A DNA stretch of 12,437 nt. It comes from Promethearchaeota archaeon (GTDB lineage: Archaea; Asgardarchaeota; Lokiarchaeia; Sigyniarchaeales; SOKP01). Shown here piece after piece: positions 10,361 through 12,437 of the stretch (its first letter is position 1; each line of letters begins with the position of its first letter). The notes below the pieces were generated by a model that saw only the letters and a list, made by a program, of their open reading frames with translations, had not been told where the DNA came from and ran no database searches. Made by a program: the position numbers and the translations under genes. The stretch is taken from assembly GCA_048938855.1 (NCBI GenBank), contig JBHLLT010000008.1, positions 112,908-125,344 on the forward strand, given 5' to 3'.

Positions 10361-10735
10361 CTATTCTATTCCTACTTTAGCAGCATATTTTACTATTATG
10401 AAGATTATAAATGCTATAATTATAAAGTTAAGGAATGCTGCTATAAAATTACCGATTCCAAACACACCTAACTTAATACTACTGATATCTTCAAAGCCAG
10501 GAACGAAAATGCCAATAATGGGTGTTATAATATCTTGTGCTAATGATAGAATCAAAGCATTGACAGCTAAGCCTATAATAAATGCCGCTGCCAGTCCAAG
10601 AATTTTATATTTTTTTATAAACTGTAAAAATTCTGCGGCAAGATTTTTTGGTTTCTTTGGTTCTGGTTCTGGTTTTGGAGTTAATAATTCACGAATTTTC
10701 CTTAATTCTTCTAACAATTCATTTTCTTTTGACAT
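10361..10735 (-). CDS. mscL: Large-conductance mechanosensitive channel MscL (archaeal type, atypical topology)
   Basis: S1 helix EFLQFIKKY, TM1 LGLAAAFIIGLAVNALILSLAQDIITPII, TM2 GNFIAAFLNFIIIAFIIFIIVK. ATG 10735 (MSKENELL) is preferred over the 10786 start in the track, whose extension looks like intergenic A/T runs. Confidence 0.92.
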   Translation of the reverse strand: MSKENELLEELRKIRELLTPKPEPEPKKPKNLAAEFLQFIKKYKILGLAAAFIIGLAVNALILSLAQDIITPIIGIFVPGFEDISSIKLGVFGIGNFIAAFLNFIIIAFIIFIIVKYAAKVGIE

Positions 10736-10839
10736 TGTTTTCTCTCTCAATTTTTTTTTAAAAAAGTGTAAAAAATTAGAGTTCAAAAGTATATAAAACT
10801 TATCATAATTTTTTAGAAAGAATATATTAAATACATTCT

Positions 10840-11475
10840 TTAAATGAACAAATCCATGATATCATATAATTCAATTAATTTCTCAACTGTAAGGTTAGCT
10901 TCAGCTTTTAAATCATCTAATGATTTACCAATCAAAATTCTCTGTTCTTTCCAGAAAAGGGTATAAATTAATCCAAGATACTTTCCGTAAACCAAGATAC
11001 CCCCTTCAAAATCAGAATTTTTATCAATAGTTAATGCTCCAAATGTATTTTCTTCATCATAATCAGTTAAAAACTCTATTAAAGAACTATAAAATTTAGA
11101 ACTTAAAAAAGATCTGTCAGAAACACTAGCAACTTTATGTTCAAATCCTCTTCCTGCTCTCCGAGGTACTTTTAAATGATAAAATCTTATATCATCCTTT
11201 AACTCATTTATTCGATTTCGTGCAGTTTCAAGTAATTGCTCATTTAGAGAAATTTCTTCCTCATCTCCAATGTCATCTATTTTTTGAGAGCCTCTATGTT
11301 TACCATTGTTATCAATAAATGCGATAAAAGGAGGACAGCTTGAATTATCTGAATGATTTTTTATTAATACCGTGAAAAGACCACTTTTTTTCTCATAATC
11401 TATTTGCTTTCTGAAACTTTCTTTACAATACGGACAAATCATATTGATTAATGCTGAATCTTCAGTAAAAGTCAT
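10840..11475 (-). CDS. Hypothetical protein with N-terminal putative Zn-binding domain
   Basis: 211-aa ORF; CPYC...GLFTVLIKNH..CPPFIAFIDNNGKHRGSQKID N-terminal module, acidic linker, alpha/beta C-terminal domain. Confidence 0.75.
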   Translation of the reverse strand: MTFTEDSALINMICPYCKESFRKQIDYEKKSGLFTVLIKNHSDNSSCPPFIAFIDNNGKHRGSQKIDDIGDEEEISLNEQLLETARNRINELKDDIRFYHLKVPRRAGRGFEHKVASVSDRSFLSSKFYSSLIEFLTDYDEENTFGALTIDKNSDFEGGILVYGKYLGLIYTLFWKEQRILIGKSLDDLKAEANLTVEKLIELYDIMDLFI

Positions 11476-11610: not shown

Positions 11611-12437
11611 ATGAGTAATAAGGGTTTTAATAAATTCCAAGGGGACGTAAAAACTCAGAATGTGAAATATCTTGCCGATCCTCAACTCAGAAATATAGTA
11701 AATGTGTCAATTGCTCTCGGACGTCCATTATTAGTTAAGGGAGAGCCCGGAACTGGAAAAACTATGCTTGCCCATGCTATTGCTGAAAGTCTAGGTAAAA
11801 GATTGATAATCTGGAATATAAAAAGTACAACCGAAGCCATAGACGGCTGTTATATGTATGATACAGTTCAAAGATTGAATGACAGTAGGTTTGGTTGTGA
11901 GGATCGAAATGTTAACAACATTCATGATTATATCACGCTTGGTCCTTTAGGTGAGGCGTTTGTATCTGAAGAACAAGTTGTTATATTATTAGATGAAATT
12001 GATAAAGCAGATATAGAATTCCCAAATGATTTATTGCAAGAATTAGATGTAATGGAATTTTACATAAAAGAAACCAAAGAGTTCGTAAAAGCTAAAACCA
12101 GACCAATTGTAGTAATAACATCTAATAATGAAAAAGAACTCCCTGATGCATTTTTAAGACGCTGTGTATTTCATTGGATAGAATTTCCTTCTAAAAGTTT
12201 TATGGGAGAAATATGTAAATTACATTATCCAGACCTAAAAGAAAATCTCTTAAGTCAGTGTTTACAACATTTTTATGCTTTAAGAGCTATTACAAAATTA
12301 AGAAAAATGCCATCAACTTCTGAACTCCTTGATTGGATTGGTGTATTATTAAAAAGCGGTATATCTCTCGAAGAACTGAAGAAAGAAATTCCATTCTTAG
12401 GGGTTTTAATCAAAAAGGAAAAGGATTTTGAAATTGC
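11611..12437 (+). CDS. MoxR-family AAA+ ATPase; partial, 3' end runs off the window
   Basis: Not in the ORF track; translated from ATG 11611: MSNKGFNKFQG...RPLLVKGEPGTGKT (Walker A)...YDTVQRLNDS...VILLDEIDKADIEFPNDLL (Walker B)...ITSNNEKELPDAFLRRC...PSTSELLDW. No stop before 12437. Confidence 0.95.
   Translation, partial: MSNKGFNKFQGDVKTQNVKYLADPQLRNIVNVSIALGRPLLVKGEPGTGKTMLAHAIAESLGKRLIIWNIKSTTEAIDGCYMYDTVQRLNDSRFGCEDRNVNNIHDYITLGPLGEAFVSEEQVVILLDEIDKADIEFPNDLLQELDVMEFYIKETKEFVKAKTRPIVVITSNNEKELPDAFLRRCVFHWIEFPSKSFMGEICKLHYPDLKENLLSQCLQHFYALRAITKLRKMPSTSELLDWIGVLLKSGISLEELKKEIPFLGVLIKKEKDFEI

Follow-up and report, generated by a model that had tools for sequence, protein, structure and literature searches.

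An archaeal MscL-type protein with its predicted cytoplasmic helix ahead of S1 represents a widespread subfamily

A reverse-strand gene in the window, the whole 12,437-nucleotide stretch of archaeal DNA analysed here, encodes what its sequence identifies as a genuine MscL-type channel, for which gating by tension is predicted from the family. The predicted cytoplasmic helix of this protein precedes S1, and proteins built in the same way, which we call N-type, form a widespread archaeal subfamily in TACK and Asgard lineages. The core of this N-terminal helix (N-helix) resembles that of the C-terminal helix of canonical MscL; on profile comparison we judge the resemblance real, specific and in register, but short. 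Five N-helices would, with slightly more confidence than doubt, assemble side by side into a parallel axial bundle under the pore. Rather unlikely, taken as a whole, is the further-reaching reading in which the bundle helix of an ancestral MscL was shifted to the opposite end of the protein and there makes a five-helix bundle anchored on S1. The elements are these:

10361-10735, reverse strand: mscL-family gene, 124 codons and a TAG stop, from the open reading frame and its translation.
10682-10729, reverse strand: N-terminal cytoplasmic helix, residues 3-18 (ELLEELRKIRELL; also given as KENELLEELRKIRELL), predicted by AlphaFold2 with block pLDDT 72-74.
10643-10681, reverse strand: Pro/Lys-rich linker, residues 19-31 (TPKPEPEPKKPKN), non-helical and with the lowest pLDDT (59).
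10505-10642, reverse strand: S1 amphipathic helix (EFLQFIKKYK) running into TM1, residues 32-77, from AlphaFold2 and from PF01741, which matches from position 2.
10454-10504, reverse strand: periplasmic loop, residues 78-94, from the secondary structure of the model; the alignment varies most here.
10376-10453, reverse strand: TM2, residues 95-120, an AlphaFold2 helix; the Pfam alignment reaches residue 118.
10364-10387, reverse strand: short conserved C-terminal tail YAAKVGIE, residues 117-124, with no C-terminal helix.
10742-10765, reverse strand: putative promoter or leader, an A/T box TTTTTTAAAAAAAAATT (-30 to -14) followed by the purine run GAGAGAG (-13 to -7), read from the sequence only and with low confidence.

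Both profile and structural comparisons place the protein in the MscL family. The 124-residue product, which begins with MSKENELLEELRKIRELLTPKPEPEPKKPKNLAAEF and ends in VKYAAKVGIE, matches PF01741 (Pfam MscL) at 56.8 bits (E=3.6e-15), above the gathering score of 27.4, and its nearest solved relative in a PDB sequence search is the Methanosarcina acetivorans MscL (MaMscL; 4Y7J/4Y7K, E=1.4e-15). The AlphaFold2 model, for which 35 subfamily sequences served as input, has helices at residues 3-18, 32-77 (S1 and TM1) and 95-120 (TM2), with residues 19-31 non-helical and a mean pLDDT of 75.5. When this model was submitted to Foldseek, the top matches were the chains of 4Y7K, the closed MaMscL (probability 1.00, 44% identity over 91 columns). 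Model and matches together display the MscL fold, comprising an amphipathic S1, two TM helices and a periplasmic loop, and the S1 pattern F36-x-x-F39-I-x-K fits the S1 consensus of PMC4917966. The gene is the sole MscL match within its 3.95-Mb Asgard (Promethearchaeota-type) genome. Relatives already deposited carry the database label 'MscL family protein'.

The PF01741 match is confined to residues 33-118, which correspond to positions 2-95 of the 123 in the profile; the linker and helix that the profile models at its C-terminal end therefore find no equivalent in the protein. Indeed, the terminus lies 8 residues beyond K116, in agreement with the initial annotation, which had placed the end (KYAAKVGIE) about 8 residues after TM2 and had seen no C-terminal helix. 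The modelled helix and the non-helical stretch after it likewise bear out what that annotation had read at the other end, namely a helix and a Pro/charged linker before S1. All NCBIfam MscL equivalog models (TIGR00220, NF001842) scored below threshold, with 39.9 against a cut-off of 71 for TIGR00220 and 49.5 against 146 for the best of them. The protein is therefore not a canonical equivalog, as its C-terminal module is absent and its scores fall under the equivalog cut-offs. Nor is it a helix-less MscL of the Methanosarcina type, because the conserved cytoplasmic helix 3-18 precedes S1.

The core of the N-helix reads L11-x-x-I14-R15-E16-L17-L18. The helix is highly charged, has a narrow hydrophobic stripe and extends over only about two heptads, in which, as read from the sequence, the hydrophobic residues L7, L8, L11, I14, L17 and L18 occupy positions a, d, e and g. 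Hydrophobic residues at these four positions are typical of bundles above dimer order.

With canonical MscL (E. coli; M. tuberculosis, 2OAR; PF01741, TIGR00220, TC 1.A.22) the protein shares S1, TM1, the periplasmic loop and TM2, and also one cytoplasmic helix of ~16 residues, a Pro-rich spacer and the core L-x-x-I-R-[DE]-L-L. In contrast to the canonical arrangement, the helix here is N-terminal, stands before the linker, points toward the membrane and hangs on S1, not on TM2; the early end after K116, the low TIGR00220 score and a position outside the canonical clade set the protein further apart. MaMscL (4Y7K closed, 4Y7J expanded) is likewise archaeal, with a short C-tail and no C-terminal helix. 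However, neither end of MaMscL bears a cytoplasmic helix (PMC6167328), which agrees with what the initial annotation says of the C-terminal helix in MscL of the Methanosarcina type, whereas the present protein carries a conserved 30-residue N-terminal helix-plus-linker and a distinct K-x-G-I-E tail. The review-type paper PMC6167328 goes no further than to say that the domain is missing from homologues such as MaMscL. The initial annotation knew of no account of an N-terminal-helix MscL, and we found none in the open-access literature, to which our search extended (subscription-only papers being outside its scope).

The layout proved to be common among archaea. The closest 120 database relatives (75-94% identity, mostly 124 residues long) belong to Promethearchaeota, Loki-, Thor-, Hod-, Hermod- and Odinarchaeota, and an exhaustive representative search added many proteins at 35-52% identity that begin with x-E-[ML]-L-E-E-L-K-K-I-R-E-L-L-x-P-x-P...P-K-G and end alike. 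The initial annotation had envisaged a survey of archaeal homologues, and in species-representative, named genomes 74 of the best 80 loci turned out to be N-type (Bathyarchaeia 38, Asgard 17 from seven lineages, Nitrososphaerota 10, Methanosuratincolia 3, Thermoplasmata 1, other 5). A sample from the phylum to which the window belongs yielded a match in 82 of 201 genomes (39 of the 85 of high quality), nearly all of which cover residues 1-124. Every N-type member has the order helix-linker-S1-TM1-TM2, with a linker of median length 13 residues and 38% Pro. When helix placement was scored in 104 complete representatives, 22 had the N-helix only, seven the canonical C-helix only, and none had both.

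The helix to which the initial annotation had drawn attention is also the best-conserved block across relatives at 35-50% identity, surpassing the TM helices. E10, L11, I14, R15, E16 and L18 are invariant in all 20 Asgard homologues, and the linker residues T19, P20, P22, P24, P29 and K30 are invariant among close homologues. The 35-protein alignment of the subfamily retains just four invariant columns, two of which (E10 and I14) lie in the N-helix.

The other end of the protein is conserved as well. In 65 of the 74 N-type loci the C-tail reads K-x-x-[KR]-x-G-I-[ED] and ends exactly 6 residues past the equivalent of residue 118; the remaining values stem from misalignment or, in one case, from a longer tail, and the representatives show the same ending. 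A conserved C-tail of fixed length is peculiar to the N-type, and helix-less relatives have Lys-rich ends. The N-type tail might pack against the linker or the helix.

Some members bear additional sequence in front of the N-helix. One or two copies of DUF1508 (YegP-like, PF07411), followed by a long spacer, precede it in P0132, P0147 and P0131 (E=4.6e-32, 2.3e-33), so the N-terminus is able to bear extra cytoplasmic domains. Other helix-less MscL groups (representatives P0192, P0195, P0214, P0229 and P0242) have long, charged and probably helical N-terminal extensions, and tails like KLDKLDKPK. These extensions have neither an IRELL core nor a Pro linker; being unrelated, they suggest that N-terminal extensions arose readily and more than once.

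We compared the N-helix with the C-terminal helix of canonical proteins. The canonical tails collected consist of a K/R-rich and a Pro/Ala-rich part and then [DE]-V-V-L-L-T-E-I-R-D-L-L-[KR], and the N-type consensus is K-E-D-E-M-L-E-E-L-K-K-I-R-E-L-L-T-P-K. In a profile-profile alignment (hhalign), LkkIRelL paired in register with L~EIRDlL over eight core columns with a score of 17.1. Column shuffles averaged 7.7 (SD 2.3) and reached 17.1 only once in 300, and the reversed helix scored 6.7. When the eight residues of the canonical core were turned into an ungapped PSSM, with 1.13 million PSSM windows from the long ORFs of this genome as background, the helix of this protein had P=5e-6 per PSSM window, or ~1.2e-4 per 30 residues, and the median family member 1.5e-3 per 30 residues. 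When an HMM of the N-helix was run on 121 canonical MscLs, its best match was the C-terminal helix in 119-120 of the 121, at weak scores of 0.5-4 bits that ~3% of random ORFs equal. A narrow HMM built from 121 mostly Chloroflexota C-helices did not single out the MscL ORF among all ORFs of the genome (rank 3065th); it was over-specific to T-E-I-R-D and was therefore replaced by the profile-profile and PSSM tests. For the similarity supposed in the initial annotation the picture is thus mixed: hhalign and the PSSM support it, and the HMM scores are weak.

The similarity is limited to eight residues, upstream of which the heptad register differs. In the E. coli bundle, E124, R126 and D127 form an inter-subunit salt-bridge belt (PMC5722894); the N-helix core includes the Arg and acidic pair of this belt, with Lys at the position of E124. 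In both the N-type and the canonical module, a Pro-rich spacer accompanies the helix.

Searching the genome with the N-helix HMM revealed no second helix-plus-Pro-linker, and the idea that the N-helix is a module shared with other proteins of this genome was rejected on that ground. Two ORFs of ~300 residues, C66_+0_7739 and C77_+2_5498 on contigs C66 and C77, were among the top non-MscL matches (ranks 2 and 8, 9.6 and 7.8 bits). Their C-termini read ...VKKIRE[LI]LEK, and no Pro linker follows.

How the helix came to lie at the N-terminus is a separate question. The initial annotation had called the protein circularly permuted, and in that wording the claim is not supported: a permutant would have the order linker-helix-S1-TM1-TM2, as opposed to the observed helix-linker-S1-TM1-TM2. 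The sequence does not bear out a strict circular permutation, the module being mirrored rather than cyclically shifted. As a mirror image of TM2-linker-helix, helix-linker-S1 is not produced by simple duplication and truncation. The mirrored order also means that the N-helix runs toward the membrane, so its geometry cannot equal that of the canonical bundle.

A looser form of the idea is relocation, in which the N-helix is homologous to the canonical C-terminal bundle helix and was moved by recombination, or by duplication with further rearrangement, in a lineage with a helix-bearing ancestor. We regard this as possible, though doubtful. The in-register identity of L..IR[DE]LL, for which permutation and proteome-based tests gave P of 1e-2 to 1e-4, argues for it, as do the coupling of the helix to a Pro-rich spacer in both modules and the strict mutual exclusion of N- and C-terminal positions. 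In a maximum-likelihood tree of 124 MscL cores (92 columns), which is weakly resolved and, being unrooted, does not distinguish gain from relocation, the canonical proteins group in a starred clade (98*) without any N-type row, and N-type rows are mixed with helix-less forms. Forcing the 31 N-type rows together was not rejected (AU p=0.32), so a single N-type origin is possible, which favours relocation. On the other hand, the place of the N-type outside the canonical clade and among helix-less forms makes either a gain in a helix-less ancestor or convergence possible.

Relocation is also burdened by the mirrored order and by a likeness of only eight residues with a different heptad register upstream. 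Neither of the intermediates that might be sought was found in the sets searched: there was no two-helix protein among the 104 complete representatives, and no tandem or fused MscL in a search for longer homologues, a weak negative since this search missed known DUF1508 fusions. In addition, the pentameric coiled coil of COMP carries a similar [IV]-R-E-L-L motif. That unrelated protein likewise forms a short parallel bundle of five helices with hydrophobic a, d, e and g positions, and its V-R-E-L-L would make convergence plausible. Of the initial proposal that the LLxxIRELL helix was moved to the N-terminus, the in-register likeness stands (17.1, one in 300 shuffles), but the mirrored order and the place of N-type proteins outside the canonical clade tell against the move itself.

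The proposed function of the N-helix can be considered apart from its origin. Both termini of MscL are cytoplasmic. In the N-type subfamily the single cytoplasmic helix hangs on the N-terminus ahead of S1 by a Pro-rich spacer of ~13 residues, and not after TM2. Bundled N-helices would do the job proposed for the canonical bundle, as a stabiliser of the pentamer and a pre-filter for solutes; the canonical bundle is stable and has been proposed to act as sieve and stabiliser (PMC5722894). S1 is the force-transducing element and moves 8-10 Å radially on gating (PMC4917966). Extended Pro-rich tethers of up to ~35-40 Å would let S1 travel outward by ~8-10 Å at gating while the bundle stays zipped. 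Because the tether would pull on the tension-coupling S1, threshold or substate behaviour may be set by it as well. Against the bundle count the shortness of the helix, the weak HMM-level likeness to canonical helices, the differing geometry and the Lys at the position of E124. In a complex prediction with four copies of residues 1-32 the score was 0.36, against a mark of 0.42 and controls of 0.05-0.12, a value that speaks neither for nor against a bundle.

The N-helix might instead be an independent archaeal invention that forms no axial bundle and serves for docking of a partner or regulator, or packs on the K-x-G-I-E tail or the membrane surface and thereby biases S1. We consider this improbable. 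The bacterial C-terminal bundle is largely dispensable and tolerant of mutation (PMC6167328), and its deletion has mild effects in bacteria (PMC6167328, PMC5722894). Given that dispensability, the strong conservation of the N-helix, which exceeds that of the TM helices, may reflect another role. An invention of its own would also agree with a subfamily that has its own conserved C-tail of fixed length, with the further cytoplasmic DUF1508 domains before the helix in some members, and with the recurrence of unrelated charged N-terminal extensions in helix-less MscL groups. However, no conserved neighbour gene or partner was identified, and a charged helix with a narrow hydrophobic stripe is a likelier soluble coiled coil than a membrane binder. 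On this view, moreover, it would be chance that the helix resembles the bundle core down to the Arg and acidic pair.

The axial bundle of N-helices, if it forms, bears on a debate of two decades, in which the cytoplasmic bundle of MscL has been argued to be a sieve, an oligomer stabiliser, a pH sensor or a gating element. N-type proteins keep a bundle-like helix more strictly than their TM helices, and keep it hung on S1, which transmits bilayer tension (PMC4917966). They offer natural material for asking whether it matters where the bundle sits, whether a tether to S1 shifts threshold or substates, and whether pentamers in general can be assembled through the L..IR[DE]LL core. Should the helix have been moved and form a bundle on S1, the N-type would be a case of domain transposition in nature, in a channel that ranks among the simplest known; its axial bundle would have a direct hold on the tension-coupling helix and so tune the gating threshold or cooperativity in TACK and Asgard archaea. 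The N-type also sets right the view of archaeal MscLs as channels that merely lack a cytoplasmic domain, and it is relevant for annotating osmotic-stress genes in Asgard archaea, Bathyarchaeia and ammonia-oxidising archaea.

All of this presupposes that the extension is translated. The 124-residue protein has no internal Met, and no ATG, GTG or TTG occurs from codon 7 up to TM1 other than a TTG at codon 7 itself, the sole alternative start ahead of TM1, from which the N-helix would still be kept. Homologues start at the same position. Compared with two homologues, codons 1-30 have a pN/pS of 0.10-0.14 at a pS of 0.43-0.49; so low a ratio with ample synonymous change shows a translated extension that selection maintains. 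Translation from a start downstream of the helix, which the initial annotation had treated as a danger to its reading, therefore finds no place here. A true start close to S1, which would make the protein an ordinary helix-less MscL of the Methanosarcina type, is hardly credible: apart from the chance, present with any ORF, that it has been called too long, and the existence of a longer, TTG-initiated ORF of 141 residues, nothing speaks for it, and it conflicts with the lack of start codons between codon 7 and TM1, with a helix kept at the protein level despite many synonymous changes, with start positions and Shine-Dalgarno-like motifs conserved among homologues, and with the absence of conservation in the 17 additional residues of the 141-residue ORF. 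On the grounds of missing downstream starts, protein-level conservation and conserved starts in homologues, a start-codon artefact was rejected.

Four Asgard homologue loci (L002:169, L003:3001, L004:1368 and L037:3001) start with TTG and have Shine-Dalgarno motifs of the GAGGT/AGGTGA/AAGTGA type (GGTGA-like) 7-9 nucleotides upstream. The copy in the window differs from these in having an ATG start with the GAGAGAG run alone. A look for RNA evidence at the locus turned up DNA runs alone, from sediment and mangrove.

Directly upstream of the gene and on the same strand lies an ORF of 211 residues (10840-11475, reverse strand), which starts with a CxxC motif (ICPYCKESF) and matches no Pfam family at E<=0.01. 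Positions 11611-12435 on the forward strand encode the N-terminal part of an AAA+ ATPase (PF00004, 6.3e-13) that continues past the end of the window.
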